A stretch of DNA of 61,833 bases, counting the filler, from Nemertoderma westbladi (Eukaryota; Animalia; Xenacoelomorpha), in the NCBI GenBank assembly GCA_032718475.1. It is 3 parts of 3 records of this genome, joined end to end, with 100 filler letters (N's around TTAATTAATTAA, not from the genome) between each part and the next. Parts side by side here need not be neighbours in the genome. Positions count along the whole stretch, not along the records: positions 38,852 to 61,833 come from JAUCBJ010006236.1; 2 more parts are not named here. The stretch is one strand, 5' to 3'. Positions 7,168-61,058 of this stretch are shown in pieces (the stretch's first letter is position 1; each line of letters opens with the position of its first letter). Under the pieces are notes generated by a model that was given only the letters and a program-made list of their open reading frames with translations, searched no databases and was not told the origin of the DNA. Both the position numbers and the translations under genes were made by a program.

Positions 7168-7432
7168 AAGATACTCCTTATTAGCATTGAGTATCAAAAA
7201 GGAGTAAGTGAGTAAGATACTCCTTATTAGCATTGAGTATCAAAAAGGTGTAAGTGAGTAAGATACTCCTTATTAGCATTGAGTATCAAAAAGGAGTAAG
7301 TGAGTAAGATACTCCTTATTAGCATTGAGTATCAAAAAGGTGTAAGTGAGTAAGATACTCCTTATTAGCATTGAGTATCAAAAAGGTGTAAGTGAGTAAG
7401 ATACTCCTTATTAGCATTGAGTATCAAAAAGG
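7168..7432. repeat. 46-bp minisatellite, ~6 copies, with an internal hairpin
   Basis: Unit aagatactccttattagcattgagtatcaaaaagg(a/t)gtaagtgagt, containing the inverted pair gatactc/gagtatc. Confidence 0.95.
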
Positions 7433-18640: not shown

Positions 18641-18675
18641 TCAAACCACGAGTTCACCATAGAAGACACACTAAC

Positions 18676-21096: not shown

Positions 21097-21196
21097 NNNN
21101 NNNNNNNNNNNNNNNNNNNNNNNNNNNNNNNNNNNNNNNNTTAATTAATTAANNNNNNNNNNNNNNNNNNNNNNNNNNNNNNNNNNNNNNNNNNNN
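21097..21196. other. Scaffold gap with TTAATTAATTAA spacer
   Basis: N44-ttaattaattaa-N44, identical in format to the gap at 38752-38851. Confidence 0.95.
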
Positions 21197-29000: not shown

Positions 29001-30706
29001 ATTGCTAATATTGTACATTAATTCACTGTTAGGTGAATCTATATACAAAGGAAATCCGACGGGAACTATTGAGGAGAAGGCGTTGTACAACGTGGGAGTT
29101 CGTAGAGGATGTTGGGGATTGGCTATATGGTGTATAGCTAGTTCTTTTATAAGTTCAATGTATGCGAGTATATTGTCTCGTTTCGGTGAGTTGTAATTCA
29201 TTAACATTCATATATATATCTACATGCTGTATTGAGAATACTACGACGGATTGGTAAGTTAAAGATCACCCCGCCCACTCCCCCTACACATAATATATTG
29301 TCAAAAAATTAGGCCGCCTCAATTTATTATCTCCCGTGACTGAGATTATCTAATATATTTCAATCACTTGTGTTGTATATAGGATCCAAACGTACGTACA
29401 TCTTCGGGATGCTTATCAACACATTCGGGGCTATAGTCCAGGGTTTCGCTAACAACTTCGCTATCTCCATGTTCCTCAGCTGTCTTGGGGGTTTACTCTA
29501 CACCTCAACGTTTGTCATTCCCTTCAATATCGTCGCTACATATCACTCTCACGGATTGGTTAGTGTTTACTTTATAGGACTGTCACGGATTGGTTAGTGT
29601 TTACTTTATACGATTCTCACAGATTAGTTAGTTTACTTTATGCATGCGCCACCCACGGATTGGTTAGTGTTTACTTTATACGATTCTCACAGATTAGGTA
29701 GTTTACTTTATGCGACTCCCCTCGGAGTAGTTAGTGTTTACTTTATACGACTATCATGGATTGGTTAGTTAGTACTTTATGCGCCACCCACGGATTGGTT
29801 AGTGTTTACTTTATACGACACTCACGGATTGGTTAGTGTTTACTTTATACGATTCTCACAGATTAGGTAGTTTACTTTATGCGACCCCCCTCGGAGTGGT
29901 TAGTGTTTACTTTATACGACTCTCATGGATTGGTTAGTTAGTACTTTATGCGCCTCCCACGGATTAGTTAGTGTTTACTTTATACGACACTCACGGATTC
30001 GTTAGTGTTTACTTTATACGTCTCTCACGGGTTAGGTAGTTTACTTTATGCGACTCCCCTCGGAGTGGTTAGTGTTTACTTTATACGACTCTCATGGATT
30101 GGTTAGTTAGTACTTTATGCGCCTCCCACGGATTAGTTAGTGTTTACTTTATACGACACTCACGGATTCGTTAGTGTTTACTTTATACGTCTCTCACGGG
30201 TTAGTGTTTACTTTATGCGACTATCACGGATTGGTTAGTTTATTTATACTTTATACGACTCTCACAGATTGGACAGTATACTTGACATTACTGTTATTTT
30301 ACTTTATTTTACTTGAACGGACTGCTAATTTTATATTGCAGATTAGTAATCCTTTGTTTGGAAACTACTCTAAGTCAATATATAACGTCAATATGAGATA
30401 TCTACAGTTCGCACCAGTTAATTGTTGATGGTTTTTTTGTTTTAGGGTGGGTCCCAGCCGGGAGGTAAACGAATAGCCCCCCGCGGTCTGGGAACCGATG
30501 TTGGCATAGTAACCAGTATGATGTTTGTAGCCCAGTTCACGCTCAGCCTGTTTATGGGTTCCATAGTGGAGGCGGTTGGTACCACTAGCGCCACCATGTT
30601 TACCAGCGGGATATTCAGTGGCTTAGCAGCGATAATAGCGACGAGGATAGACTACCTAGATGATTACTCCGCCAATAGCAAAGATGGCTTCCAGTTAATG
30701 GCTTAA
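23085..30706 (+). CDS. SLC45: SLC45-family (proton-associated sugar transporter/MATP-like) MFS protein. Exons: 23085-23254, 24765-25154, 26223-26370, 27005-27111, 27927-28085, 28292-28485, 29033-29185, 29383-29558, 30446-30706
   Basis: Motifs EMVYASELAFVSPLLL, W|CLSPLLGF..P.LGSLSDQCSSPIGRRRPFI, LDFSSD...IRSYLLD, FTDFVGESIYKGNP, YNVGVRRGCWGL and RGLGTD. All GT-AG junctions are phase-compatible. The start codon is uncertain. Confidence 0.9.
24083..24659. mobile_element. Tourist/PIF-Harbinger-like MITE in SLC45 intron 1
   Basis: Terminal inverted repeats aggcccggttt / aaaccgggcct plus subterminal gcactttcagc / gctgaaagtgc. Confidence 0.65.
27249..27325 (+). mobile_element. Degenerate tRNA-derived SINE head or tRNA pseudogene
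   Basis: A-box-like tggtagagcg and B-box-like gagttcaatccc, with no intact cloverleaf. Confidence 0.45.
28915..28990 (+). mobile_element. tRNA-derived SINE head, same family as 49760-49833 and 50062-50316
   Basis: cctgag...gaatggttagagcgccaga...aggtcaccagttcgatcccacc. Flanking sequence is also shared with the 49760-49890 copy. Confidence 0.6.
29545..30270 (+). repeat. ~30-34-bp tandem array (~22 copies) made from the SLC45 exon 8 donor junction
   Basis: Unit cgactctcacggattg|gttagtgtttactttata. The first copy is the real exon end and donor (29558/29559). Confidence 0.9.
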
Positions 30707-33632: not shown

Positions 33633-34055
33633 TTAATTAATATTAATTTGGTTATTTGTTTATTAATTCGTTCTTATTTTGTTATTGTTAATAATATGTT
33701 ACATTAATTTGTTTTGCGCCATAGGTACCGATACGTTGTTAATTAAAGTTACGCCCGTTCTCTCCATTTGGTCTTCATATTATCTATCCTATAACAAATT
33801 GAATTGAGATCAGCCCTTTCTTTCACTTTTAAACATTACGGGAGCTCAAATTAAGCGCCCTTATCCTTAAATAAGAACCCTCTTTAGGTGCTAATTAAAA
33901 TTAAAATTAAACGCACCTTAAATTAATTAAATAGAAGATTATCGCTACAATATTTATTAGAAATAGAAATAGTGTAAAAGTGAATATGTAATTTTGTTGA
34001 AGCAGAGTATTAAAAATATTTAAAAATTAAAGAAATTATTAATTGGAAAAAATTT

Positions 34056-36415
34056 GTGAATAATAATAAGTCCCAGATAGACCATATTCTGTTTCGTAGG
34101 AAATACAGGAGCTCTATACAAGACTGTAATGCATTTACACTTCGACCCTTCTCCAGTGATCACCGCCTTATTGTGGCCAAGGTAAGACTTAGTCTGCGTG
34201 CTAGCAGAACAACGAAATCTGCCTTGCCGCGGCATGACTGGTCCTCTCTGTTGCAACAGCCAAGTGTGAGATCCAGCTTCACATTACAGCTGAGCAACAG
34301 GTATGAGGCTCTTGCCTCTGAGGCGGCAGATCACTGTGAGGGCTATACTGCCTTTACAGAAGCAGTTAAGTTAGCAGCTGCAGAAACAGTTCCTGTATAC
34401 CCTCGAAACAGGAAAAGGGCCCCCTGGACTGACAACAAAATTCAGAAGTGCCGAAATGACCTTCATAAGGCGCAGAAAGAGTCCCGACTCAAACAGACTA
34501 CAGCGGCCAAGAATGCAGTTAAGGCTGCATCTAGGTCCCTGAACAGGCAGTACTCTATTAATCTACAGGAGCTAATAAACCAACAGGTTGATGCCATCAA
34601 TGATGCTGACGACAGCAGGCAATCATCCCAGGCATGGAAATCGATCAATTTGCTTACTGGGCGGAAAAGCCAACCAACCACCAAGGTTAAGGCTGAATCA
34701 CCAGCCGATCGCCTCAATGGTTGGAAAGCCCACTTTGAAAAGCTCCTCAATAATGACAGGGTATTGCCTGATAACTTTATAGAAGTAAAAGTGTCTGAGT
34801 CTGTACTCCCAGATATTCCCATTGGCGATATCTCCTTTGCAGAAGTGAAGGCTGCTGCAAAGAGCATTAAGACCAATCGTGCCAGTGGAGTAGATGGTGT
34901 TCCCCCTGAGGTCTTTAAAATACCTGAGTGTTTAAAGCTCATCTATCCCATCATAGTAGACATGTACCGAACAACAAGAGTTCCACAAGAAATGAAAACA
35001 AATAAGTTGGTGCCAGTTCCCAAGAAGGGCAACCTAACACTCTATGGTTCTTTTCGGGGAATCTCATTGATCTCGATTGCTGCAAAGCTATACAATAGGA
35101 TTCTATTAAATCGCATCAGGGATCCCATTGAGAGACTGCTCCGTGGAAATCAGAATGGGTTCCGTAAAGGTCGTGGGACCATGGAGCCCATTTTGGCACT
35201 TAGAAGGATAATTGAAGAATTATCAAAAAAGAAAGACAGGCACCTGGCTGTTATCTTTGTTGACTTCTTCAAGGCCTTTGATTCAGTCTCTCGCTCACGT
35301 ATGTTCAGCATACTTTCATTATATGGGATTCCTGATGAAATTATTGCAGCAATCAGATCAGTATACGATGGTTCGACAACATTTGTGTCTACTGTTGACG
35401 GTGACACAGAACCATTTGAAGTGTTATGGGGCGTCCTCCAAGGAGACACACTTGCACCATTCTTGTTCATTATTGTGGTTGACTATGTTCTACGCATGTC
35501 CTTAGATCATCATAATGATGATGGGGTGATGATAACTCCACCTACTGGCTCCAGAAGTCGAGGAAATCCTGCCAAGTACCTAACTGATCTAGACTTTGCT
35601 GATGACTTAGGAGTACTCTCAGAATCATTAGAGGGAGCCCAACGGCTCCTCAGCTCATTAGAACATGCTGCTTCTAGTGTTGGTCTTTTTATTAACTCCA
35701 GAAAGACCAAAATTTTGACAGTTAACTTTGAAAGTCCTCAGCAAGTCTCTGATCGGATGAGCATAAGCTCAAAAGATGGTATGCTTGAGCATGTGGACGA
35801 CTTCTGTTACCTGGGATCATGGATCCGGAAGTCAGGTGAGGACCTTCGAATACGTAAGGGAAAGGCATGGGCAGCCTTGAATAGGCTTTCCAGGATTTGG
35901 AAGTCACCGAGAATTAATCGGAAACTTAAGGTCCGATTATTTAGAGCAGCAGTAGTTCCAGTACTCCTCTACGGGAGTCCATGCTGGGCTCTAACTGCTG
36001 AGGACACCAAATCTCTGGATGGCACATTCACAAGAATGCTACGCCGGGTTCATTGTGTCAAGTACAATGCACACATCTCCAACCAGACACTATATAACAT
36101 TGGAGGTGTCTCATTGGTTCCCCCATGCTTGACACTAGAACAAAATCGCCTCCGCTTTGCAGGACATTGCTTTCGCCGTGAGGACCAGCCAGTGCATAAT
36201 CTTGTACTTTGGCAGCCTCATGGAGTGAATAAGCATGGTGGACAGCCCATGACTTTCTTGAGACGCATCTTAAAGGACACTGGCCTTGAAGATGCGGATG
36301 ATCTAGCAAATGTCATGGGTGATAGGGAGTTGTGGCGGTGCAATTTTGTTGACAGGCCGGCACAGCATTCTTAAAAATGCAGCTGCAATGCAGCATGCCG
36401 ATCCTAGTAGTAGTA
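34056..36415 (+). mobile_element. 5'-truncated RTE-clade-like non-LTR retrotransposon with an uninterrupted RT ORF (34056-36374)
   Basis: Endonuclease C-terminus (QIDHIL, SDHRLI), RT motifs FRGISL, QNGFR, VDFFKAFDSV, GVLQGDTLAP, FADD and YLGS, a short 3' UTR and a (TAG)n tail near 36404-36415. Confidence 0.9.
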
Positions 36416-37299
36416 TGAACACAGTTTTTGGAGCATACTACAACTGCTGACTTTTGCTGAACCAGGCTGATCAATCAGCTTATTAATAATTGCAGCCGGA
36501 TTGGATAAATTATTAATTAATTTGGGAAACTTTACTAATTAGTAAAATCGTTAATTAGTTCGATTCAAAAGATTTTAGAATAATTATTATTTGTAAAATA
36601 GTAAACCGCATTGATACACCTTGTGAATAAGGATTTGGGGGCGGGGGGGACAAAGCCCCCCCGCCAATTAGGTAATTAAGTAATTAGTTAATTACTAATT
36701 AACGGTAGGAGATACGGCATCGGCGCCAGAGACTTTTTTGTGTAGAATAAAATTCCGAACAACTTTGTGATGTTACGTTTTTTCATAGCTCTTAGTGTTT
36801 TCGAGTTACGACGCTAATTAGTTTTCGGCTAATTAGTACTAATTAACAGTAATAGGAGGGCCATAGCGATGACTGAACTTTTTTTAGATCTTACCGAGAT
36901 GAACAAAAAAAAACACCGTTGCTAGGGGAAAAACCAAATACTTTTTGAGAAAAATCAATTAGAAATCTTTAATCGCTAATTACTAATTAATTAATTAACA
37001 GATTTTTTCCACAAAAACTCCTAGCTATCGCGCTAGGGCCATCTACCAGATCGCGCAAACAGAATCGTTCTAGCTTTTGCCATTCTCCTGGAAAAATCCT
37101 TTAAAAATCGACCTAAAAAAGATCAAAGCAAAGTGCCTACTTGACAAGGGGTTCGATATAATGCTATCTTATGAGGTTTTACTTTGGTGTTTATGTTGGT
37201 TTGCTAAGTTCCGTTAAAAAGGCTGCATTATTTATTCCTCATAAGACTCTGTCGAGCCTTTGGCTCTCCAGTGGCAGCCAGACCATCCAGACCATCCAG

Positions 37300-38751
37300 T
37301 TTCTTAAATAACCGCACACATTTTGTTTCAATAGGCAACACAAAATCAGAACCGATACTGTCTCCCTGTGGAACCCCACAAGGAGCAATACTGAGCGCCA
37401 CTTTATTCCTACTTTACATTAACGACTTACCCAATTGTACAACACTTCTAGCAACCCTATTCGCAGACGACACTAACCTACTTTACAGCCATACAGACCC
37501 GACCATACTGACTGACACTGTAAACACAGAACTCCAAAAGGTCGAACAATGGCTTACTGACAATCAGCTCTCTTTAAACCTTAAAAAAACAGAACACCTA
37601 ATTTTTACATTTAAAAAGGAACCTATAAATAACAATATAAATATGCAAAACTTACCAATCAAGAAAGTAACTCAAACAAAATTTTTAGGAATATGGATAG
37701 ATAACAAACTTACATGGAAAAATCACTGCGCGTATGTACTAAAAAAAATCTCAAAATCTATAGGTATATTCTTCAAATTACGTCACATCCTACCATTAGG
37801 CATTATGAAATTACTTTACTACGCTTTGATACAACCATATATTACGTACGGTATAGTGATCTGGGGAACTGCTAAACATGTTCATATTAATCCGATTAAA
37901 ACTAAAATAAACAAATTAATTAGAGCAATTACCTTCAGTCACTACCGGAAACATGCACCACCACTATACAGACAATTAAATATACTACCTATAGACAAAT
38001 TACACATACTTGAAACAGCTAAACTAATCTGGGAAATCCGTAATAACAAAAAACGATCTTTTATAACATCATTGTTCCAACAAACATCCACTTTACATAC
38101 TTACAATACTCGATCAACGACACGCCAAAACTACTTTATACCTCGGACCCGACTATTACTAACTCAAAATTCATTAAAATATCACGGCGCCATTGTCTGG
38201 AACTCCTTAGACACCGACATAAAACAAAGCAAATCGAAAAAAACACTAGGTAGGAAACTAAAAATCAAATTAATTAATGAACTACAGTAAAAACAAAAAT
38301 GATATAAATTAAATACAAATAAATATCAAACCTAATCTTCCAAAAAATAACAATTTAATTATTTACAACAGATATCACAGGTAAAAAATAGTTGGAATAC
38401 AACTATTGGTTATGGTTATGGATATGGCAGAATTGAACTTAGTAGTGGCTGGCGGCATCCCTTGAAATTCTCCCCCCCCCCCCCCCCTCCCCCACCCACC
38501 CCTGATTGACCGATGGCAGCAACCGGCATTACTAGCTACCGCTACTGTCAGTTCCTGCCAGGGCACATAAACATAATAGCACACAAAAAAATTGCAGAAC
38601 ATACAAACAAATTTGAAATGCTCTCAAGGTGAATTATATTTTAATTTGTTTTGTGAACTACTGTTTATTTAAATATTGTCTGTAAATTGTGTGCGGTCAC
38701 TCTGGAACAAAATATAAGAGCCCTTACAGGCTCACATCAATCAATCAATCA
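37300..38751 (+). mobile_element. 5'-truncated L2/CR1-group LINE (RT C-terminal half to 38290, 3' UTR, (TCAA)n tail)
   Basis: GTPQGAILSATLFLLYINDL, FADDT, KFLGIWIDNKLTW and HTYNTRS; ends in atcaatcaatcaatca before the gap. Confidence 0.85.
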
Positions 38752-38851
38752 NNNNNNNNNNNNNNNNNNNNNNNNNNNNNNNNNNNNNNNNNNNNTTAAT
38801 TAATTAANNNNNNNNNNNNNNNNNNNNNNNNNNNNNNNNNNNNNNNNNNNN
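38752..38851. other. Scaffold gap with TTAATTAATTAA spacer
   Basis: N44-ttaattaattaa-N44. Confidence 0.95.
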
Positions 38852-41800
38852 CAGGTATTGCGGGCTCTGCTACTCTCCTTATTAGTACCTACTGTAGGCC
38901 GACAGTATAATATTACTCATATACTTTAGGTATCCATATCGCCAGGTATTGCGGGCTCTGCTACTCTCCTTATTAGTACCTACTGTAGGCCGACAGTATA
39001 ATATTCCCCATATACTTTAGGTATCCATATCGCCAGGTATTGCGGGCTCTGCTACTCTCCTTATTAGTACCTACTGTAGGCCGACAGTATAATATTCCTC
39101 ATATACTTTAGGTATCCATATCGCCAGGTATTGCGGGCTCTGCTACTCTCCTTATTAGTACCTACTGTAGGCCGACAGTATAATATTACTCATATACTTT
39201 AGGTATCCATATCGCCAGGTATTGCGGGCTCTGCTACTCTCCTTATTAGTACCTACTGTAGGCCGACACTATAATATTACTCATATACTTTAGGTATCCA
39301 TATCGCCAGGTATTGCGGGCTCTGCTACTCTCATTATTAGTACCTACTGTAGGCCGACAGTATAATATTCCCCATATACTTTAGGTATCCATATCGCCAG
39401 GTATTGCGGGCTCTGCTACTCTCCTTATTAGTACCTACTGTAGGCCGACAGTATAATATTCCCCATATACTTTAGGTATCCATATCGCCAGGTATTGCGG
39501 GCTCTGCTACTCTCCTTATTAGTACCTACTGTAGGCCGACAGTATAATATTACTCATATACTTTAGGTATCCATATCGCCAGGTATTGCGGGCTCTGCTA
39601 CTCTCCCTATTAGTACCTACTGTAGGCCGACACTATAATATTACTCATATACTTTAGGTATCCATATCGCCAGGTATTGCGGGCTCTGCTACTCTCCTTA
39701 TTAGTACCTACTGTAGGCCGACAGTATAATATTCCCCATATACTTTAGGTATCCATATCGCCAGGTATTGCGGGCTCTGCTACTCTCCTTATTAGTACCT
39801 ACTGTAGGCCGACAGTATAATATTACTCATATACTTTAGGTATCCATATCGCCAGGTATTGCGGGCTCTGCTACTCTCCTTATTAGTACCTACTGTAGGC
39901 CGACAGTATAATATTCCCCATATACTTTAGGTATCCATATCGCCAGGTATTGCGGGCTCTGCTACTCTCATTATTAGTACCTACTGTAGGCCGACAGTAT
40001 AATATTCCCCATATACTTTAGGTATCCATATCGCCAGGTATTGCGGGCTCTGCTACTCTCCCTATTAGTACCTACTGTAGGCCGACAGTATAATATTACT
40101 CATATACTTTAGGTATCCATATCGCCAGGTATTGCGGGCTCTGCTACTCTCCTTATTAGTACCTACTGTAGGCCGACAGTATAATATTCCCCATATACTT
40201 TAGGTATCCATATCGCCAGGTATTGCGGGCTCTGCTACTCTCCTTATTAGTACCTACTGTAGGCCGACAGTATAATATTCCCCATATACTTTAGGTATCC
40301 ATATCGCCAGGTATTGCGGGCTCTGCTACTCTCCTTATTAGTACCTACTGTAGGCCGACAGTATAATATTCCCCATATACTTTAGGTGTCCATATCGCCA
40401 GGTATTGCGGGCTCTGCTACTCTCCTTATTAGTACCTACTGTAGGCCGACAGTATAATATTACTCATATACTTTAGGTATCCATATCGCCAGGTATTGCG
40501 GGCTCTGCTACTCTCCTTATTAGTACCTACTGTAGGCCGACAGTATAATATTCCCCATATACTTTAGGTGTCCATATCGCCAGGTATTGCGGGCTCTGCT
40601 ACTCTCCTTATTAGTACCTACTGTAGGCCGACAGTATAATATTACTCATATACTTTAGGTATCCATATCGCCAGGTATTGCGGGCTCTGCTACTCTCCTT
40701 ATTAGTACCTACTGTAGGCCGACAGTATAATATTCCCCATATACTTTAGGTGTCCATATCGCCAGGTATTGCGGGCTCTGCTACTCTCATTATTAGTACC
40801 TACTGTAGGCCGACAGTATAATATTACTCATATACTTTAGGTATCCATATCGCCAGGTATTGCGGGCTCTGCTACTCTCCTTATTAGTACCTACTGTAGG
40901 CCGACAGTATAATATTCCCCATATACTTTAGGTGTCCATATCGCCAGGTATTGCGGGCTCTGCTACTCTCCTTATTAGTACCTACTGTAGGCCGACAGTA
41001 TAATATTACTCATATACTTTAGGTATCCATATCGCCAGGTATTGCGGGCTCTGCTACTCTCCTTATTAGTACCTACTGTAGGCCGACAGTATAATATTCC
41101 CCATATACTTTAGGTGTCCATATCGCCAGGTATTGCGGGCTCTGCTACTCTCCTTATTAGTACCTACTGTAGGCCGACAGTATAATATTCCCCATATACT
41201 TTAGGTATCCATATCGCCAGGTATTGCGGGCTCTGCTACTCTCCTTATTAGTACCTACTGTAGGCCGACAGTATAATATTCCCCATATACTTTAGGTATC
41301 CATATCGCCAGGTATTGCGGGCTCTGCTACTCTCCTTATTAGTACCTACTGTAGGCCGACAGTATAATATTCCCCATATACTTTAGGTGTCCATATCGCC
41401 AGGTATTGCGGGCTCTGCTACTCTCATTATTAGTACCTACTGTAGGCCGACAGTATAATATTACTCATATACTTTAGGTATCCATATCGCCAGGTATTGC
41501 GGGCTCTGCTACTCTCCTTATTAGTACCTACTGTAGGCCGACAGTATAATATTCCCCATATACTTTAGGTGTCCATATCGCCAGGTATTGCGGGCTCTGC
41601 TACTCTCCTTATTAGTACCTACTATAGGCCGTCAGTATAATATTACTCATATACTTTAGGTATCCATATCGCCAGGTATTGCGGGCTCTGCTACTCTCCT
41701 TATTAGTACCTACTGTAGGCCGACAGTATAATATTCCCCATATACTTTAGGTGTCCATATCGCCAGGTATTGCGGGCTCTGCTACTCTCCTTATTAGTAC

Positions 41801-44707
41801 CTACTGTAGGCCGACAGTATAATATTACTCATATACTTTAGGTATCCATATCGCCACGTATTGCGGGCTCTGCTACTCTCCTTATTAGTACCTACTGTAG
41901 GCCGACAGTATAATATTACTCATATACTTTAGGTATCCATATCGCCAGGTATTGCGGGCTCTGCTACTCTCATTATTAGTACCTACTGTAGGCCGACAGT
42001 ATAATATTACTCATATACTTTAGGTGTCCATATCGCCAGGTATTGCGGGCTCTGCTACTCTCATTATTAGTACCTACTGTAGGCCGACAGTATAATATTA
42101 CTCATATACTTTAGGTATCCATATCGCCAGGTATTGCGGGCTCTGCTACTCTCCTTATTAGTACCTACTGTAGGCCGACAGTATAATATTCCCCATATAC
42201 TTTAGGTGTCCATATCGCCAGGTATTGCGGGCTCTGCTACTCTCCTTATTAGTACCTACTGTAGGCCGACAGTATAATATTACTCATATACTTTAGGTAT
42301 CCATATCGCCAGGTATTGCGGGCTCTGCTACTCTCCTTATTAGTACCTACTGTAGGCCGACAGTATAATATTCCCCATATACTTTAGGTGTCCATATCGC
42401 CAGGTATTGCGGGCTCTGCTACTCTCATTATTAGTACCTACTGTAGGCCGACAGTATAATATTCCCCATATACTTTAGGTATCCATATCGCCAGGTATTG
42501 CGGGCTCTGCTACTCTCCTTATTAGTACCTACTGTAGGCCGACAGTATAATATTCCCCATATACTTTAGGTATCCATATCGCCAGGTATTGCGGGCTCTG
42601 CTACTCTCCTTATTAGTACCTACTGTAGGCCGACAGTATAATATTCCCCATATACTTTAGGTGTCCATATCGCCAGGTATTGCGGGCTCTGCTACTCTCA
42701 TTATTAGTACCTACTGTAGGCCGACAGTATAATATTACTCATATACTTTAGGTATCCATATCGCCAGGTATTGCGGGCTCTGCTACTCTCCTTATTAGTA
42801 CCTACTGTAGGCCGACAGTATAATATTCCCCATATACTTTAGGTGTCCATATCGCCAGGTATTGCGGGCTCTGCTACTCTCCTTATTAGTACCTACTATA
42901 GGCCGTCAGTATAATATTACTCATATACTTTAGGTATCCATATCGCCAGGTATTGCGGGCTCTGCTACTCTCCTTATTAGTACCTACTGTAGGCCGACAG
43001 TATAATATTCCCCATATACTTTAGGTGTCCATATCGCCAGGTATTGCGGGCTCTGCTACTCTCCTTATTAGTACCTACTGTAGGCCGACAGTATAATATT
43101 ACTCATATACTTTAGGTATCCATATCGCCACGTATTGCGGGCTCTGCTACTCTCCTTATTAGTACCTACTGTAGGCCGACAGTATAATATTACTCATATA
43201 CTTTAGGTATCCATATCGCCAGGTATTGCGGGCTCTGCTACTCTCATTATTAGTACCTACTGTAGGCCGACAGTATAATATTACTCATATACTTTAGGTA
43301 TCCATATCGCCACGTATTGCGGGCTCTGCTACTCTCCTTATTAGTACCTACTGTAGGCCGACAGTATAATATTACTCATATACTTTAGGTATCCATATCG
43401 CCAGGTATTGCGGGCTCTGCTACTCTCCTTATTAGTACCTACTGTAGGCCGACAGTATAATATTACTCATATACTTTAGGTATCCATATCGCCAGGTATT
43501 GCGGGCTCTGCTACTCTCCTTATTAGTACCTACTGTAGGCCGACAGTATAATATTCCCCATATACTTTAGGTATCCATATCGCCAGGTATTGCGGGCTCT
43601 GCTACTCTCCTTATTAGTACCTACTGTAGGCCGACACTATAATATTACTCATATACTTTAGGTATCCATATCGCCAGGTATTGCGGGCTCTGCTACTCTC
43701 CTTATTAGTACCTACTGTAGGCCGACAGTATAATATTACTCATATACTTTAGGTATCCATATCGCCAGGTATTGCGGGCTCTGCTACTCTCCTTATTAGT
43801 ACCTACTGTAGGCCGACACTATAATATTACTCATATACTTTAGGTATCCATATCGCCAGGTATTGCGGGCTCTGCTACTCTCATTATTAGTACCTACTGT
43901 AGGGCGACAGTATAATATTACTCATATACTTTAGGTATCCATATCGCCAGGTATTGCGGGCTCTGCTACTCTCCTTATTAGTACCTACTGTAGGCCGACA
44001 GTATAATATTACTCATATACTTTAGGTATCCATATCGCCAGGTATTGCGGGCTCTGCTACTCTCCTTATTAGTACCTACTGTAGGCCGACAGTATAATAT
44101 TACTCATATACTTTAGGTATCCATATCGCCAGGTATTGCGGGCTCTGCTACTCTCCTTATTAGTACCTACTGTAGGCCGACAGTATAATATTACTCATAT
44201 ACTTTAGGTATCCATATCGCCAGGTATTGCGGGCTCTGCTACTCTCCTTATTAGTACCTACTGTAGGCCGACACTATAATATTACTCATATACTTTAGGT
44301 ATCCATATCGCCAGGTATTGCGGGCTCTGCTACTCTCCTTATTAGTACCTACTGTAGGCCGCCAGTATAATATTCCCCATATACTTTAGGTGTCCATATC
44401 GCCAGGTATTGCGGGCTCTGCTACTCTCCTTATTAGTACTGTACCTACTGTAGGCCGACAGTATAATATTACTCATATACTTTAGGTGTCCATATCGCCA
44501 GGTATTGCGGGCTCTGCTACTCTCATTATTAGTACCTACTGTAGGCCGACAGTATAATATTACTCATATACTTTAGGTATCCATATCGCCAGGTATTGCG
44601 GGCTCTGCTACTCTCCTTATTAGTACCTACTGTAGGCCGACAGTATAATATTACTCATATACTTTAGGTATCCATATCGCCAGGTATTGCGGGCTCTGCT
44701 ACTCTCC
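38852..44707 (+). repeat. 91-bp tandem array (64 acceptor copies visible, running into the gap) made from an intron 3' end plus the exon start of the clavesin-like gene
   Basis: Unit gtatccatatcgccaggtattgcgggctctgctactctcc-ttattagtacctactgtaggccgacagtataatattactcatatactttag. The last copy continues as coding exon 44668-44797. Confidence 0.97.
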
Positions 44708-46768
44708 CTTGAGAAGATTTCCGACGATTCGGTAAATTGTTTGTTGCCATACAAAGTCGTGTTCATCGTCGATTTCGTTTCTTTTACATTCGATCAGGTG
44801 ATTACGCCATCTAGTGGGTGATTGTCGCATTGAATTATAATTTTAAATATTGCAGTATATCGGTAGGCCAAAAGTTATAAGGCCCTATGAAGATGAAGTA
44901 ACGCAATTTTTATAATATTACAGTACGCGGGGTGTTTTAAATTATTTGTAATGTGCCATATTGGAATATAATGCGCTAAACGCTACACTTGCTGCCTATA
45001 ATGTCAAGTAATATTGACAATTTATACAAAAGATATAGGCCTTCAAAGACATGTAAAAGTACAATTTACAAATCTAATGTAAGAAATATATCATAAGAAA
45101 TAATTATTACGTTTTAGAATTTATCACGATCAATAATTCGGTATTATATTAATTTAGCTGAATTATTATTATATTTATCAATATTTTTCTACTTTTTAAT
45201 TTCGTAGGCCAATATATTTTTCCTATCTTTCATTTCGTTTTAATTATTTTAGGCTAAAGAACTAACAGTGCGGGAACTGAAACTAACTGTAGACGCCCTT
45301 GAAGATAGTCTACCAATAGTTATAGATGAAGTTCATCTAATAAACCCGCCGTGGTTTATGCAGGCGGCGTTGGCTATGATTAGGCCATTTCTAAACACCA
45401 GATCCAAAGAAAAGGTTAGAATTCTGGTGGTACACCACAATTCCATAAAGTTTGCCACGGAGTTGGTGTAGTTTACCGCTATTCGCTCACTATTCGGCGT
45501 TTGCAGTGGTACCATACCGAATGCCCATCGGCACATTATGCCTAATTGCACAATATAATGCACATAGAATGCATTTAAACTAACTATTTTGCCTCAAGTT
45601 TTCGAACAACCTCTCCAGTCTGCATAAACTCATATTTGTTTTAGATTCACAAACATTCGAACAACCTCTCCAGTCTGCATAAACTCATATTTGTTTTAGA
45701 TTCACAAACATTCGAACAACCTCTCCAGTCTGCATAAACTCCTATTTGTTTTAGATTCACAAACATTCGAACAACCTCTCCAGTCTGCATAAACTCATAT
45801 TTGTTTTAGATTCACAAACATTCGAACAACCTCTCCAGTCTGCATAAACTCCTATTTGTTTTAGATTCACAAACATTCGAACAACCTCTCCAGTCTGCAT
45901 AAACTCATATTTGTTTTAGATTCACAAACATTCGAACAACCTCTCCAGTCTGCATAAACTCATATTTGTTTTAGATTCACAAACATTCGAACAACCTCTC
46001 CAGTCTGCATAAACTCATATTTGTTTTAGATTCACAAACATTCGAACAACCTCTCCAGTCTGCATAAACTCATATTTGTTTTAGATTCACAAACATTCGA
46101 ACAACCTCTCCAGTTTGCATAAACTCATATTTGTTTTAGATTCACAAACATTCGAACAACCTCTCCAGTCTGCATAAACTCCTATTTGTTTTAGATTCAC
46201 AAACTTTCGAACAACCTCTCCAGTCTGCATAAACTCCTATTTGTTTTAGATTCACAAACATTCGAACAACCTCTCCAGTCTGCATAAACTCATATTTGTT
46301 TTAGATTCACAAACATTCGAACAACCTCTCCAGTCTGCATAAACTCCTATTTGTTTTAGATTCACAAACATTCGAACAACCTCTCCAGTCTGCATAAACT
46401 CCTATTTGTTTTAGATTCACAAACATTCGAACAACCTCTCCAGTCTGCATAAACTCCTATTTGTTTTAGATTCACAAACATTCGAACAACCTCTCCAGTC
46501 TGCATAAACTCCTATTTGTTTTAGATTCACAAACATTCGAACAACCTCTCCAGTCTGCATAAACTCCTATTTGTTTTAGATTCACAAACATTCGAACAAC
46601 CTCTCCAGTCTGCATAAACTCCTACCGCGAGAGAATTTACCGGCTGATTTGGGGGGCCTTCGGCCGCCGTGTCAGCAGGATGCGTGGGCGTGGAGACTGA
46701 TATATAGCCAATACTGGGTTCCCAATAGCCAAAGAACAGAGGACGAAAAGCCCATATGGGAAGCCTAA
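44668..46768 (+). CDS. Clavesin/CRALBP (RLBP1)-like CRAL-TRIO lipid-binding protein, last three exons (44668-44797, 45253-45414, 46580-46768); 5' exons not visible
   Basis: Spliced YPYRQVLRALLLSLEKISDDSVNCLLPYKVVFIVDFVSFTFDQ|AKELTVRELKLTVDALEDSLPIVIDEVHLINPPWFMQAALAMIRPFLNTRSKEK|IHKHSNNLSSLHKLLPRENLPADLGGLRPP...WEA* is colinear with recalled clavesin motifs (LRAILLSLE, VHFVNQPW, KPFL, NNLNSLH, LPSEFGG). Confidence 0.88.
45601..46624 (+). repeat. 55-bp tandem array (18 acceptor copies) made from the terminal-exon acceptor junction of the clavesin-like gene
   Basis: Unit tttgttttag|attcacaaacattcgaacaacctctccagtctgcataaactc(c/a)ta. The last copy opens the final exon at 46580. Confidence 0.97.
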
Positions 46769-49019
46769 CCCTCTATAACTTTGTAAACGATGTCTAGGCC
46801 TACTGCATGTTGTACTGTACAGTAGTAGTAAAATTAAAATCTGTTGTAAGCCAGCCGCATTTTGTTTTGTATGTCATTCGTCATTGGCTTATTATTTTAT
46901 TCCAAAATTAAACATTACTTTACACAACTAGTATTGACATCGGAAACATGGGGGAATATTGACGCAAATCTCATCTTAGTAAATTAAGATGATTAATTAT
47001 CAATTTATGGAAAGGAACAGGTTACATTGGCTATTGGCATGGTATTCTACCATAAAAGCAGTCATTGACTGTTTACAGTTTCATTTTTCGAACGGAGATT
47101 GGACGCGTAAATAAACACTCTCGTGAGTAAAGTTTGCTCTGCGGACCCATTTTGCTTGGCCAGCAAGATTCACATTTCCCGTTAATTCAGTGACACTGAG
47201 GCTTTGGGGCTAGGGTTACAGTTTGGGCTTCTCAGAGCGAACTCTTTATGTTTATACGGGGTGTTAGAATACCATTGAGTTTTATCGGTTTTTGCGACAC
47301 GTCTGGGGTGAGCGAGGTGAGCGTCTCGAAGGGAGACGATCTGAATGGTTATTTTTAAAAAATTCTTACAAATTAATGATTGAGAATTGTTTGTGATTAT
47401 GAAACGTATTAAATTATATTGGATAATTTAAATTATATATACTCATTGTTTGGTTTCATACTTATGAGGCTAATATTATATTCATAAATAATTATAATTC
47501 ATACATAAACACAATATTATAGAATATAGTGTATTAATTAAATATATTAAATAACCTGCAGCGGAAATAAAAACATGCAGTTTTCTTATACGGCGCACTA
47601 TTCAGCTTTTATGAACCTTGTGTATTTATGTATACCTTCCTCGCAGCGCTCGCTCGGTTCACAAATACACTCAAATTTTCATTTCACACAATGTTATAAA
47701 TAGTTATTGTTATACGGGTGAATGAGAGGGTGAATGAATAATGAGCTCATGAATCCGCAATATCAACGGGAAAAATTCGGACCAGTTTACCCGTTGTTTC
47801 CGAATCCGTGTTGGTTTTTAACAAATCCATTGGCAGTAATTTTAACATAATGTAGGTGTGACCGCAAATCTAAGGGCACCACCCTAAGGTTTGTCGCAAT
47901 TTTAGTTACTTTAGAGGAAGAGTTTATTACAGTAGTTAGTCCCTGTAATACTATATTTAATATTACATGGTTAGTCCTATTCAGACTGTTGGCGCTATTT
48001 TTCTGATGTTGAGGTGGTTGCAGTCGACATTGATGGTGCCTCTCCGGGAGGAATTTTTCCCCTGTAGCGACCACCGGGCCGCCCTCCTCTTGCTCCTTAT
48101 CATCTCCTCTAAATAAGGATACTCAATTATGTTTCATATATAAACTTTCAGGTCTCTGTCGGTATGATAGGTCTGTTTCATTACTTGGGATAGCAACCTG
48201 CCTGATTATATAATTTCCTACCCGCAGACTCTCTTTGTTTGTTATAATACTTTTTCTAATTGTTTTTTGGAAAATGGCCTTTCTCAATTACAACTCGTGC
48301 CCTCCTATTTAGGTAATGTGTTAGTCCAAGTATTTTTGAATCAATTATTGTTGCTGACATTTTTACTTACCAACCGTTCTCCAAAAGCGACCATACTGTA
48401 TTTCTGTCTACTTCAGTGTTGTCTGTCAAAATTTTATTATTAATTAATTTTATTAAATTCTATTCAGATTTGTATATTGGTTTTAAAAATTCTGATAATG
48501 TTGGTTTTTCTATTTATTTAAATAATTTTATATTTAACTGCAAATCAATATATAATATATACTGTGTCAATGATATACTAGGAAATTTGTGAAGGTGCAC
48601 TCAAACGGGCATCTCGAAATTTCTCCCTAGGGTGTCTCTAAAGCCGCAATTAAAAATAAAATTATTACCATCGTAAAAAGCAAAAAGCGGCAGTGGCGGC
48701 GCAGACCCACCCGTAGCCGTATCAACAAATACAAACTTTGCGCTAAGTTGGCCTCCAAAGAAAGCGGCACACAGGGGAGCCGAAAGAACTTTTCATGCCG
48801 AAAGTAAGATTCTTAACTCTTGTAAATCATAACACACTATTCAAATAAATGTTAATTCTAGGCGTATATAAGGCTTGGATTCCAGGCCTTTAACATAATG
48901 GTGAGATGATTATTTTCGACAAAACATAAAAGCTGATATTTATCACGGATCTTAAAGATTTACAATGGATATCAAATTTTACCGAATATTCCACTCTTTA
49001 ATGGTTCTTCTATCAGTTC

Positions 49020-49300
49020 AGTGAATTTAAATCCCGCTGCCGTTTTGGCCATGTTGCGTAATCTGAAACCCAAATCTAGCAGCACACCGGACTGTTCTTC
49101 TTCACAAACTTTCGTGTGAGTTAGCAGGGCCCTCTTTCTATTATTTATTATTTTTAATGTTTCTTTTTTGACGCACTCATCACCGACTATTTGGCACTCA
49201 GCATTCATAGTACCTATATTTAAGAAAGGCAACGGCAATGACCCCTATTGTTAATGACCAGTTTCTTGCACGTGTATTTCTTGCAAAGTTTTACAAACAA
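49020..49300 (+). pseudogene. Degenerate non-LTR RT fragment (CR1/Jockey-like)
   Basis: Disrupted translation ...LRNLKPKSS.TPD...WHSAFIVPIFKKGNGNDP..**PVSCTCISCKVL resembles the RT N-terminus. Confidence 0.55.
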
Positions 49301-49759
49301 ATTAACACAAATTTATATCTAAAAGTTAACATGGATAAGAATTAAGAATCAAGATAGATATTCGCGCAACTTTCCGAATGCACTAGTGACTTGTTTAAAA
49401 TGGTCGACGCCCAGAAAACTATTGACAGTGTTTACATTAAGCGTTGCAATCTACCCGAAAATAATCTATCCCGGCTTTCGCATCTTAAATTGGAATCTTT
49501 AGAATAACGTACTGCACCGGTAAAATCAAATTTGACTCTTTTGGCAAAGTAAAAAATCACATATTTTTAAATCTTGATGATTAATTCGTGCTCTAATTAT
49601 CCTCCATCCCTACACAGTTACCAGTCGCCTTAAGGCCTGTTGTTTAGATGGCCCTAATATTTTTATAATTTATTATTGGATTAAATATTGGTGCTTTGGG
49701 GAATGAGTTAGTGTTTCATTTCATATTTTATTATAACTTTCTTTGGACACAGCTTTGTA

Positions 49760-49833
49760 ATTCCGGGTGGGATCGAACTGGTGACCTCCAGGATGGAAGT
49801 CTGACGCTCTAACCATTCAGCTAGCGGCTCAGG
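49760..49833 (-). mobile_element. tRNA-derived SINE head
   Basis: The minus strand reads cctgagccgctagctgaatggttagagcgtcagacttccatcctggaggtcaccagttcgatcccacccgg, with A and B boxes. Confidence 0.6.
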
Positions 49834-50061
49834 TAAAATATAGACCTGGAAATACTATCTGATACCTTGTATATCCGCAATTTACCTCCTCATGGCAACC
49901 AATCTTTTAATACCATCATATGCTGCCACTGTGCTCAACCCTACAGTGCTTGGCCGTCTTTAACAACTCGCTACACTGAAAGGGTAGTCTAGTCATATTA
50001 ACCATCACGGCCACAATAATTAATTATACACTCTAACAGTCATACTACAGTTAGTACTAAA

Positions 50062-50316
50062 GAATGGTTAGAGCGTCAAATCTTCAGATGGGGGGACAAA
50101 ATTAATCCCTCTCCTGGGGAAAATCGCCTCAAATAACAGCTGATTACACCCAAAAATAAAACTGTAACCTTTGACTTAAAGTTCATTGTTTTGGTTAGAA
50201 TAACGTTCATCTGTAACCTGCTCCTTTTCCCTTAAATTGATAATTTAACATTGAGGAATATTAATTCGCCGAGATGGCTTCAAATTTCCAACCCGGGGGT
50301 TCCCAGTTCGATCCCA
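50062..50316 (+). mobile_element. SINE head split by a ~200-bp insertion (50082-50279) related to 26446-26650
   Basis: The A-box half and B-box half are separated by an insert flanked by duplicated tcaaat. Confidence 0.55.
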
Positions 50317-50632
50317 TCGTATTTTGTGTTTTGCCAAGCTGTGTGCCTAATAATATTGTACAGTATAAAGCCCAAAGCCCAACGAATGATATAATGATAT
50401 TTATTTTTTGTCAGTTCAATGCATGACGTTTTATTTAGATCGAGACTATCCAATGCCACGTGCTGACTGCACGCTGCACACAGATCTGCGTTCTAACATC
50501 AGGACGTTGTGCTGTTGTGTTATACTGTTATACCATCGGTTTCTCTTTGGTCGGTGTCTTATCGCTACCGGAACTCTGTTACTTACCCGTATAGCAGTAG
50601 GCCTACCTGTTATCAGTTACTTTCTTAGATCT

Positions 50633-52747
50633 ATGGATTATCCTACGGTTCGAAGGGATTCCACACTATCCTACTCACTTGGAGATCGGAAAATAGACGA
50701 TCCTTACTTGTGGCTGGAAGATCCTGAGGCCGAAGAAACTAAAGAATTTGTGACCAAACAAAATCAGATCACTAATTCGTACCTAGAAGCCAATGGCAGT
50801 TCAATTCGCGAAAATTATAAGAACAAACTCACTAAACTCTGGGACTTCGAAAAATACGGTTCTCCTTTTAGAAAAGGTGATAATTATTTTTATTACCATA
50901 ATAGTGGACTTCAAAATCAATATGTTCTTTACAAACAAAGCTCGCTTTCTGAGAAAGGAGTTGCTTTTATAGACCCGAATGAGATTGCAGCAGACGGTAG
51001 CATATCGCTTACGTCCCTGTCGTTCAGTGAGGATGGTGCCATATGCGCTTATGGACTCAGCGAGAAAGGATCCGATTGGTCTACGGTTTATTTCCGAACT
51101 GTGGCGACAGGGGAGAACCTCCCGGACAAACTCGAGCGGGTCAAGTACAGCTGTCTGGAGTGGACGCACGACGGGGCTGGAGTCTTCTACAACACGTACT
51201 CCTTGGAGCAGGGAGAGGCCACCGGTAAGTCAACCACCAAGAACGAGAACCAACTACTGCGTTACCACGTGTTGGGTTCGGAGCAGTCCGCGGACGTCCT
51301 GTGCGCCGAGGAACCCGACCACCCTACGTGGATGGTGTACGCCGAGGTAACGGATTGCGGTAACTACGTCGTAGTAACCACGCACCATGGTTGCGAACCT
51401 TCAAACCAGCTGCATATCTGCGATCTCAGAAAGACAGGCGGCAAGATAACAGGCCGTTTGGAGTGTCTCTCTATTGTGGATAATTTCGAATCGAGTTACG
51501 ACTACGTCGCTAATGACGGACCGTTATTTGCCTTTAAGACAAATTCCGGCGCTCCGAATAATAAAATCGTTACTATCGATATTTCCTCGGATAGTCGGGA
51601 GTTTTCCGACCTAATTCCCACCTGCGACGACCCCTTGGACTGGGTGGTCTGCTGCGACCGCGACAAACTGCTGCTCTGTTACCTACACGACGTAAAGAGT
51701 GAGTTGTTCGTCCACGACCTGCGAACCGGCGGCAGACTGTTCGCGATCCCCTTGGACGTAGGCACGGTGCACGGTTGCTCCGGGGATCGCAAGTACAGCG
51801 AGGTGTTCTTTAAGTTCGTCTCCTTTTTGACCCCGGGTCGCACTTTCCGGGTGGATTTCTCCGAGTCGGAAGTTAAACCGACTCTCTTCCGAGAGACCGC
51901 AGTAGACGGATTCGACTCTGATTTATTCCGAGTCACTCAGGTTTTCTATAATTCCAAGGATTCCACTAGAATCCCCATGTTTATAGTCCACAAGAAGGAT
52001 ATCCTTTTAGACGGAAGCAACCCAACTAAGATCTACGCTTACGGAGGTTTCAATGTATCTATTAAACCGCATTTTAGTATCTCTATCATTCCGTGGATGT
52101 TGAATCTCGGTGGGGTTTACGCGGTGGCCAACGTCCGCGGCGGCGGGGAGTACGGGAGGGATTGGCGAGACGCCGGTTCGAATCTCAACAAGAAGAATAG
52201 TTTCGAGGATTTAGAAGCGGCCGCTGAGTACCTTATAGACGCGGGATACACCGCCAGCGACCGGTTGGTGCTGACCGGGGGCTCGGGCGGCGGTCTGGTT
52301 GTCGCAGCCACTATAAACCGGCGTCCCGGGCTCTACAAGGCCTGCGTGTCCCACGTCGGGGTTATGGACATGCTGCGGTACAACCGGTTCACCATCGGGC
52401 CCGCTTGGGTATCGGATTACGGGGACCCCGCCAGCCCCGAGTTCTACGAATATATCCGCAGTTACTCCCCGTTGCACAACGTGCCTTCCGGCGACGTTGA
52501 CTACCCCGCTATGTTGTTGGCTACCAGCGACCACGACGACCGAGTGTCGCCGCTCCATTCCTATAAGCTCATCTCCGAGCTGCAGTATAAGCTGGGCGCC
52601 ACTTCGGGACAGAAGAACCCTTTGCTTATTCGGATAGAAACAAAGGCCGGTCACGGTTTCGGTAAACCAACCACCAAGATTATAGAGGAGTTATCGGATT
52701 GTGACACTTTTCTAGCGACTACTTTAGGGCTGAAATGGATTGGCTAG
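50633..52747 (+). CDS. PREP: Prolyl oligopeptidase (peptidase S9A), intronless CDS
   Basis: MDYPTVRRD, DPYLWLEDP, YAYGGF, NVRGGGEYG, catalytic GGSGGG, HDDRV and KAGHG. ATG 50633 matches the family N-terminus, whereas the upstream ORF extension is non-homologous. Confidence 0.95.
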   Translation: MDYPTVRRDSTLSYSLGDRKIDDPYLWLEDPEAEETKEFVTKQNQITNSYLEANGSSIRENYKNKLTKLWDFEKYGSPFRKGDNYFYYHNSGLQNQYVLYKQSSLSEKGVAFIDPNEIAADGSISLTSLSFSEDGAICAYGLSEKGSDWSTVYFRTVATGENLPDKLERVKYSCLEWTHDGAGVFYNTYSLEQGEATGKSTTKNENQLLRYHVLGSEQSADVLCAEEPDHPTWMVYAEVTDCGNYVVVTTHHGCEPSNQLHICDLRKTGGKITGRLECLSIVDNFESSYDYVANDGPLFAFKTNSGAPNNKIVTIDISSDSREFSDLIPTCDDPLDWVVCCDRDKLLLCYLHDVKSELFVHDLRTGGRLFAIPLDVGTVHGCSGDRKYSEVFFKFVSFLTPGRTFRVDFSESEVKPTLFRETAVDGFDSDLFRVTQVFYNSKDSTRIPMFIVHKKDILLDGSNPTKIYAYGGFNVSIKPHFSISIIPWMLNLGGVYAVANVRGGGEYGRDWRDAGSNLNKKNSFEDLEAAAEYLIDAGYTASDRLVLTGGSGGGLVVAATINRRPGLYKACVSHVGVMDMLRYNRFTIGPAWVSDYGDPASPEFYEYIRSYSPLHNVPSGDVDYPAMLLATSDHDDRVSPLHSYKLISELQYKLGATSGQKNPLLIRIETKAGHGFGKPTTKIIEELSDCDTFLATTLGLKWIG

Positions 52748-61000: not shown

Positions 61001-61058
61001 TCAGGCGCTTCGAGCTTATTTCGAGAACTTGGAACGGGAATCCGAGATAGAATGCTAA
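58053..61058 (+). CDS. Eph: Eph receptor tyrosine kinase, full length (1001 aa), intronless CDS
   Basis: Signal peptide, ephrin-binding domain (GWVEVS, YQVC, CKETFDLYY), Cys-rich region, two FN3 domains, TM helix, YVDPHTYED juxtamembrane motif, kinase (GGGEFG, HRDLAARN, DFG, RWTAPE) and SAM domain. Confidence 0.97.
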   Translation: MIFQYFLAIYFVGSLIPGNQGDRDVLYDTFNQPSKLQWTAYSSPQDKDNGARYGWVEVSKYDESGRSTSRAYQVCDITNDKKDHWVRTRYISREKATNIKINIIFSMMDCSSLQAEEVKSAVNKVCKETFDLYYFEANPGVIPSVDHPGFKKIAKVAGEGFHEGKNAINNKTFEISDLTQQGFYLAFHDEGSCTGIQRLYVYYNFCPAMTTNLAEFPRTATDTGGYQVVTIVEGRCVKRAASDSQRAPVAHCTSKGDWYEFQGGLEGCECIQGHEPGADGTTCNTCPTGFYKPSYGNTACLRCPPHSESLNPGSTSCKCTPGFYRGARDSVPDACASPPSEPRNLTASVQRTVVLLAWEPPVNDGGRGDLSYYVECPLCDHGVLWDPSRTRILGTNVTVTHLTPETRYTFRVFSENGVSQFAKSTETLFSAISVSTGEAVSIANLSVTNFTSTSVSLRWSAPNYPAEEILGYIVRVFHRDRHDGYHSDLSVNTTHAVVGELNPEHEYTFQVGVDIHGGFGKFSDPVSAPRSGTGGASESNHRHDGVANIFTAHTGIIIGVSASVVVLIVVVCIILVAVIRKTRGYKHVDSLEGFRGTEMKLPVRSDRVYVDPHTYEDLGQAVREFAKEIDVSLVAIHSVIGGGEFGDVCKGLLKTNDKNQQLKAVAIKTLKTGSSDKNIKDFLAEASIMGQFNHCNVIYLEGVVTKSQPVMIITEFMENGALDQFLRGNDGKLTPIQLVGMLRGVACGMEYLSDMGYIHRDLAARNIIVSASLVCKVADFGLSRVLDGSSGCREYTTHGGKVPVRWTAPEAIAFRKFTSASDVWSYGIVGWEAMSFGERPYWDWSNHDVIKAVDGGYRLPPPMDCPDAIYTLMVECWHQERSNRPRFADIRQRLDRIIRNPAMLNYVAQRRFDSVSRAQEPVSFDCVVHIEDFLRVIKMDRYLDVFEEAGCVSLDELRDLNVQKLVDMGITLIGHQKKILSNIQALRAYFENLERESEIEC

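Follow-up and report, generated by a model that had tools for sequence, protein, structure and literature searches.

Splice-junction minisatellites at two acceptor sites of a predicted CRAL-TRIO gene in Nemertoderma westbladi

How does a gene use its own 3′ splice site when the intron in front of it carries a long row of near-identical copies of that site? The question is raised by a locus of Nemertoderma westbladi (Xenacoelomorpha; GenBank assembly GCA_032718475.1). The stretch of DNA that was analysed, referred to here as the window, has a length of 61,833 nt and consists of three contigs joined by linkers. The contig JAUCBJ010006236.1, which occupies positions 38,852-61,833 of the window, opens with a tandem array of a 91-bp unit. 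A first-pass annotation had described this as a 5.8-kb array of 64 decoy acceptors in which each unit combines the end of an intron with the start of an exon, and had proposed that every upstream copy acts as a built-in poison exon. Our analysis suggests a different role for the copies. The array is probably a minisatellite of the type known as a ‘mirage’, placed at what is very likely a CRAL-TRIO exon; it is predicted that its extra copies leave with the excised intron and do not serve as splice sites.

The elements on which this proposal is built are the following.

Positions 38752-38851, no strand: contig linker N44-TTAATTAATTAA-N44; array 1 begins at the next base.
Positions 38852-44707, plus strand: array 1, a 91-bp unit in 64.3 copies, read as a 51-nt intron tail ending in TTTAG followed by the first 40 nt of exon E1; 63 decoys and the true acceptor.
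Positions 44668-44797, plus strand: putative exon E1, with acceptor TTTAG/G and donor CAG/GTGATT; the first base would complete a split codon and is followed by 43 codons (YPYRQVLRALLLSLEKISDDSVNCLLPYKVVFIVDFVSFTFDQ).

Array 1 was found by Tandem Repeats Finder with a period of 91, 64.3 copies, 97% matches and 0% indels (score 10981). The motif TTTAGGT occurs 64 times within it, first at 38925 and last at 44663. Reading frames were begun at the G following each AG, in the phase used by the first-pass annotation. With 62 of the 64 sites this gives 29 codons (YPYRQVLRALLLSLLVPTVGRQYNI[T/P]HIL and six minor variants), after which the frame ends in the TAG of the next site. One site stops after 20 codons, its unit carrying a 5-bp insertion (96-bp unit at 44403), and one, with its AG at 44666-44667, stays open into ...LEKISDDSVNCLLPYKVVFIVDFVSFTFDQ (LEKISDD...). 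The array and its 64 sites are thus real, and the acceptor at 44667 is, as had been stated, the only one that continues into LEKISDD. The tally is 63 decoys and one true acceptor. Because the array starts at base 1 of its contig, the figures of 64 copies and 5.8 kb are minimum values, and both the 5′ end of the array and any upstream exons lie outside the window. The array is cut by an assembly break. An identical N44-TTAATTAATTAA-N44 spacer is present at 21097-21196, and adjacency across either spacer is meaningless.

The copies are very uniform. Apart from one unit of 96 bp, array 1 can be divided into 63 units of 91 bp, which when aligned show variation in just 10 of 91 columns. Its central part shows unit variants in alternation, with a rhythm of 182 bp, and a pattern of six units at 41400-41855 reappears 14 units further on, at 42674-43129. 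Both features look like signs of unequal crossing-over. The 64 in-frame TAGs are a single motif copied at a period of 91 (3n+1) and not 64 independent events; stops are present in all three frames of the unit. By chance alone, some 9% of 91-nt stretches should contain a YYYAG/G motif on a given strand. Each unit contains two AG/GT junction motifs, TTTAG/GTATCC and GCCAG/GTATTG. Elsewhere in the window only chance matches of at most 23 nt to the unit were found, a search of Rfam with 38852-50700 gave nothing at E ≤ 1, and metagenome scans with a 27-nt piece of the unit gave no match.

The nature of the array depends on what lies to its right. Profile and structure-database matches indicate that this region is spanned by a plus-strand CRAL-TRIO gene, similar to tocopherol transfer protein, for which the following parts can be predicted.

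Positions 44798-45252, plus strand: intron 1, 455 nt, GC content 0.27, without an array, as read from the sequence.
Positions 45253-45414, plus strand: exon E2, 54 codons, with acceptor TTTTAG/GCT and donor AAG/GTTAGA; CRAL_TRIO profile positions 78-126.
Positions 45415-46579, plus strand: intron 2, 1165 nt, of which the last 979 nt (45601-46579) are array 2.
Positions 46580-46768, plus strand: exon E3, the last coding exon (IHKHSNNLSSLHKLLPRENLPADLGG...), 62 codons and TAA; CRAL_TRIO profile positions 130-153.

The Pfam scan covered 56 of the 62 open reading frames (ORFs) of at least 40 amino acids in 44560-50632, the six omitted ones being further frames of the 55-bp array described below. 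The ORF at 45253-45468 (plus strand) matches CRAL_TRIO (PF00650) with an E-value of 1.6e-10 and 41.4 bits, against a cut-off of 22.6. E2 alone (45253-45414) matches profile positions 78-126 (E 4.1e-9, 36.9 bits), still above this cut-off. Among PDB entries the E2 ORF matches alpha-tocopherol transfer protein (TTPA; 1oip, residues 176-226, E 4.5e-6) and retinaldehyde-binding protein 1 (CRALBP). The reading frame of E3 runs from 46580 to 46765, with TAA at 46766-46768. Its first 30 codons match CRAL_TRIO positions 130-153 of 153 with an E-value of 0.048; this is the sole Pfam family listed at E ≤ 10, and the match is colinear with that of E2. A loose pattern for the end of the domain found two matches in 5.2 kb of plus-strand frames, PADLGG in the E3 ORF and FGG in an overlapping frame. 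A PDB search with E3 alone returned just an unrelated methyltransferase (E 1.2). A word-index protein search with the E2 ORF gave no match, a metagenome scan found no relatives of this ORF, and the ESM Atlas gave no usable match for E1 or E3. An initial reading of array 1 as nothing more than a non-coding satellite, its motif being incidental, was dropped after the CRAL_TRIO matches of E2 and E3 had been obtained.

If E2 and E3 belong to such a gene, does array 1 end in one of its exons? The segment 44668-44797 is, with high confidence, exon E1. It is stop-free and ends in phase 0, and E2 begins in phase 0, which gives an in-phase join. Segments of the same quality (YYNYAG/...AG/GTR, 90-200 nt, stop-free, phase 0) were counted in non-genic background on both strands. 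Only four were found, corresponding to 0.033 expected in the 636 nt searched, or to 0.008 if a GC content of at least 0.39 is required. GC content changes stepwise at the proposed borders, from 0.31 in the 51-nt intron tail to 0.55 in the 40-nt exon head, 0.39 in the unique part of E1 and 0.27 in intron 1. The codon log-odds per codon are +0.06 for E1 overall and +0.19 for its unique part, compared with −0.22 for E2; the value of the unique part is just over the 95th percentile (0.178) of open background windows, and the E1 frame is clearly the best of three. The codon score of the 43-residue E1 peptide is intermediate, in the top 9.5% of open background windows and in the bottom 5% of the known coding sequences of the window. 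The domain match provides a further argument: CRAL_TRIO positions before 73 must be encoded 5′ of 45253, where only 545 nt of unique DNA are available, which supports E1. Taken together, the open segment, the splice motifs, the phase and the GC step make it very likely that the unit was correctly described as 51 nt of intron end plus 40 nt of exon start, although another in-frame acceptor, discussed below, would shift this division.

Alternatively, E1 might not be an exon, and array 1 an ordinary intronic minisatellite with a TTTAG/GT and an open frame at its right edge by chance. E1 by itself is without a homology match, and open frames of at least 43 codons are common in this AT-rich background (280 in 39.5 kb, six frames). 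A word-index protein search with the 43-residue peptide also gave no match, but the collection lacked the window's own proteins and the result is therefore uninformative. A chance origin is hard to reconcile with the 0.033 candidates expected for this combination of motifs, openness and phase, with the GC step falling exactly on the proposed borders, with the need for coding sequence in the small amount of unique DNA 5′ of E2, and with the presence, at the Pfam-supported exon E3, of another array built alike. We consider this explanation very unlikely.

The second array occupies the end of intron 2.

Positions 45601-46624, plus strand: array 2, a 55-bp unit in 18.6 copies, read as a 10-nt intron tail (TTTGTTTTAG) followed by the first 45 nt of E3; 17 decoys and the true acceptor.

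Tandem Repeats Finder gives 98% matches for its 18.6 copies. The motif TTTTAG/ATTCAC occurs 18 times, exactly 55 nt apart. From 17 of the 18 sites the reading frame stops after 30 codons, and the remaining site is that of E3, which runs into PRENLPADLGG.... Array 2 shares the build of array 1, an intron tail joined to an exon head, at the next acceptor but one, so that two of the three acceptors visible in the gene bear junction-spanning arrays. The earlier description of array 1 and its reading frames was accurate; the structural half of its interpretation is supported, and is extended by array 2. The presence of two arrays in one compact gene is less unlikely than it seems at first sight, as roughly 40% of the sequence outside arrays is estimated to be exonic. 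Neither 91 nor 55 is divisible by three, so that duplications wholly within an exon would be selected out. The left edge of array 2 holds no significant degenerate copy of the unit (P 0.17), and the likeness between the two array-end regions was not significant either (P 0.14-0.2).

At the third acceptor there is a direct repeat of about 25 nt in the tail of intron 1 (45181-45205 and 45214-45238, 33 nt apart), just 5′ of the acceptor of E2, and TAG/GC follows both copies. Its P-value in dinucleotide shuffles was 0.03, and one of 481 adjacent-window controls reached the score. This repeat may be a decayed junction duplication.

Array 2 also bears on the possibility that array 1 is removed stepwise by recursive splicing at juxtaposed AG/GT sites. 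The two AG/GT junction motifs in each 91-bp unit would provide the signals, but the donors regenerated in this way (GTATCC, GTGTCC and GTATTG) are weak. Moreover, the unit of array 2 is free of AGGT and yet has the same architecture, so that recursion cannot be the common explanation. We regard recursive splicing of array 1 as extremely improbable.

If the copies are near-identical, what could distinguish the last one? The true acceptor of array 1 equals the modal decoy across 51 nt upstream and 40 nt downstream, and in both arrays the true site first diverges from the decoys at 41-46 nt into the exon. Just beyond these points, both exons contain a purine motif.

Positions 44711-44717, plus strand: purine motif GAGAAGA, a possible exonic enhancer, 4 nt past the point at which the true exon departs from the decoys.
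Positions 46629-46635, plus strand: purine motif GAGAGAA, 5 nt past the end of array 2.

The pattern GAGA[AG][AG]A occurs 13 times on the plus strand of the window, and two of these occurrences lie 4 and 5 nt beyond the ends of the two arrays. The motifs at 44711 and 46629 are the sole purine runs of at least seven in the approximately 200 nt scanned around E1 and E3, respectively. The joint chance of this arrangement is 4.5e-3 for a generic definition (purine 7-mer with at least three G) and 1.4e-2 for any purine 7-mer. Purine-rich exonic enhancers are well established. As a hypothesis, the purine motif could be an enhancer that marks the true exon. Such a role would account for the selection of the last copy as well as for the fact that the surviving duplications end just short of the motif.

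In view of the above, the following course of events can be proposed. Each array would have originated when a 3′ splice junction was duplicated once in tandem, and could have grown and been kept uniform by unequal crossing-over or replication slippage, with which the unit-variant patterns of array 1 agree. The last copy would be chosen by exon definition, being the sole copy that continues into the rest of the exon. This remainder contains the GAGARRA motif 4-5 nt past the repeat, followed by a donor in E1 or by the end of the gene in E3. Use of an upstream copy would add 91n or 55n bases to the mRNA and introduce a premature stop, probably followed by degradation of the transcript.

Several points weigh against this proposal. 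E1 alone, in short and long forms, found no Pfam or PDB match at E ≤ 10, and a phmmer search with the 50-residue E1 read-through against 1.84 billion proteins gave a single match, a translated tandem repeat and not a relative. A second in-frame acceptor, CTGTAG/GCC (44635/44636), would start E1 at 44636 and recast the unit as a 19-nt tail and a 72-nt head. The acceptor of the first-pass annotation is favoured by composition, because the extra 32 nt of this option have a GC content of 0.31; with either acceptor the 91-bp unit would span the 3′ splice junction. The purine pattern was defined only after it had been noticed. Co-transcriptional splicing on a ‘first come’ basis would favour the first copy, and since the true acceptor is identical to the modal decoy, the choice of the last copy depends on the hypothetical enhancer and the exon-definition argument. 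Finally, the N-terminal half of the gene lies outside the window, so the gene could be dead.

The last point leads to an alternative in which the gene is dying or dead, the junction duplications having broken its splicing, after which the arrays could expand freely. Besides the missing N-terminal half, the 63 and 17 competing acceptors seem harmful, and several single-ORF genes in the window suggest that redundant copies may exist. Decay of the gene is, however, not apparent in the parts that can be seen: E2 and E3 are free of stops and frameshifts, keep the conserved CRAL_TRIO positions and end in a normal stop codon, and every splice site is consensus-like. We give little credence to a dead gene.

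The alternative closest to the original proposal of poison exons is that the upstream acceptors are really used. The premature stops would then lead to nonsense-mediated decay (NMD), and the array would be an expression brake that depends on copy number. The decoys are identical or near-identical to the true acceptor (array 1: 51 + 40 nt; array 2: 10 + 45 nt), and a stop occurs within 30 codons for 63 of 63 decoys of array 1 and 17 of 17 of array 2. To this extent the proposal stands, as use of a copy would indeed produce a premature stop. On the other hand, the copies look like alternative 3′ splice sites and not like cassette exons. They reproduce the acceptor only; the GTs that follow (CAG/GTATTG at +16 and TAG/GTATCC at +91) are weak and part of the repeat. 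Neither the purine motif nor the remaining exon is present in the decoys, and repeated sites were silent in the only studied precedents, among them the amphioxus mirages, which left splicing undisturbed. In addition, if decoys were used at an excess of 63:1 the gene would be almost silent, whereas E2 and E3 have stayed intact and conserved. Use of the array as an NMD brake is therefore doubtful, and judged by these precedents a poison-exon function of the copies is unlikely.

A further reading can be set beside these. The arrays would not be neutral: only duplications that do not include the enhancer would survive, so that the repeated piece ends 3-4 nt short of it in both exons, and residual use of decoys would make array length a heritable and fast-mutating dial on CRAL-TRIO expression through NMD. 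We regard this as a speculative and rather improbable extension. If it were true, the locus would be a natural dissection of 3′ splice-site choice, in which 63 and 17 perfect acceptors lose to the one that bears an enhancer.

Such loci are also a practical hazard. Array 1 interrupted the assembly and conceals the upstream exons, and gene predictors meet 63 wrong acceptors in it.

Pfam scans with 137 further ORFs showed no additional array of the window to lie at an exon border. An array at 29545-30272, with periods of 34 and 169 bp, ends about 170 nt before the ORF 30446-30703, which has a weak MFS_1 match (E 6e-4), and thus falls short of an exon border. A 22-bp unit in 41 copies (alternatively a 67-bp period) at 17731-18643 lies about 740 nt downstream of the ORF 15497-16993 of a PARN-like gene. 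This gene (14907-15106 / 15497-16993) has a clear GT-AG intron, CAG/GTGGGA ... TTGTAG/TTT, and served as a reference for the splice sites of this genome. A 46-bp unit in 5.9 copies at 7168-7437 contains the inverted repeat GATACTC...GAGTATC and a donor-like AAG/GTGTAAGTGAGT, and adjoins no evidence of an exon.

Several genes in the window are contained in one ORF. A prolyl oligopeptidase of 704 codons is encoded by an uninterrupted frame at 50633-52747 (plus strand); its best matches, proteins from a nemertean, a mollusc, a cnidarian, an echinoderm and a vertebrate, are only about 50-53% identical. A complete Eph receptor of about 1000 codons, from the ligand-binding domain to SAM, occupies a single ORF at 58053-61058 (plus strand) and has a GC content of 0.59 against a background of 0.35. 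Ribosomal protein L18a is likewise encoded by a single ORF at 2722-3258 (minus strand). Judged by these frames, the three genes look intron-poor or retrogene-like, an uncommon condition in animals. Dispersed repeats lie a short way upstream of the prolyl oligopeptidase gene, at 49762-49891 and 50098-50273. They match two segments of another contig, 28857-28986 (opposite strand, 85%) and 26471-26647 (81%), respectively, and probably derive from a mobile element. Two reverse-transcriptase ORFs (RVT_1) that resemble long interspersed nuclear elements are found at 34014-36374 and 37208-38290 (both plus strand).

The arrays can finally be compared with known systems. The closest resemblance is to the mirages of amphioxus, of which the original description, for Adh3, is reportedly that of Canestro in 2002. 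Mirages are described as minisatellites whose unit lies across an intron-exon boundary, in Adh3 and in the globin genes BflGb6 and BflGb9, and many of the units bear AG/GT signals (PMC3087553). The repeat of BflGb6 consists of the 3′ end of an intron together with the 5′ portion of exon 2, in 3-6 units of 150-160 bp (PMC3087553). The same account calls the arrays length-unstable and subject to concerted evolution and proposes a link to intron gain, and its Adh3 data and reverse-transcription PCR of the globins suggest that regular splicing is undisturbed (PMC3087553). A further text states that the mirages of PGBD5, Adh and troponin C ‘do not generate aberrant mRNAs’ (PMC3902484). Both arrays of N. 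westbladi are head-to-tail repeats with a boundary-spanning unit and an edge copy that enters unique exon sequence, which for array 1 follows from the predicted gene structure. So far as these descriptions go, they share with the amphioxus mirages the repeated splice signal, the position of the authentic copy at the edge of the array and the homogenisation within a cluster, and with BflGb6 even the parts that are repeated. They differ in being far larger (64 copies or more in array 1 and 18.6 in array 2, while BflGb6 has 3-6 units) and in affecting two acceptors out of the three that are visible in one gene. The animal is not a lancelet, having no close relative in the protein collection, where its best prolyl oligopeptidase match is 53% identical.

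In intervening sequence 7 (IVS7) of human F7, a 37-bp variable number of tandem repeats (VNTR) multiplies a donor, and its pseudo-sites are reported to be normally silent, the selection being explained by 5′-to-3′ scanning (PMC1557585). As in N. westbladi, the edge unit spans a boundary, here from exon to intron, and creates a row of identical pseudo splice sites. According to this description the F7 donors lie downstream of the authentic site, whereas the decoy acceptors of N. westbladi lie upstream of it, so scanning of the F7 type would pick a decoy. The Rogers model describes the birth of introns by tandem duplication across AGGT (PMC3265369; PMC3087553). The duplication of splice signals and the splicing out of a redundant copy are, as the model is outlined there, features in common. 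Array 2 differs in that its unit is without AGGT and its donor (45415) lies 186 nt upstream, outside the array. It would therefore reside inside an existing intron and not create one, and an intron birth of this type does not fit array 2.

Poison exons are conserved cassette exons with two splice sites of their own and regulated inclusion, coupled to NMD. Use of an extra site in N. westbladi would likewise bring an in-frame premature stop upstream of later exon junctions, but the copies are recent near-identical duplicates of one acceptor. The locus belongs to the mirage kind already described; what is new is the size, the presence of two arrays in one gene and the host lineage. Splice-junction mirages, named in lancelets, would thus also occur in an unrelated animal lineage, at an extreme size with at least 63 decoys and twice in one gene, and such loci can serve as natural experiments on how the spliceosome chooses among identical 3′ splice sites.

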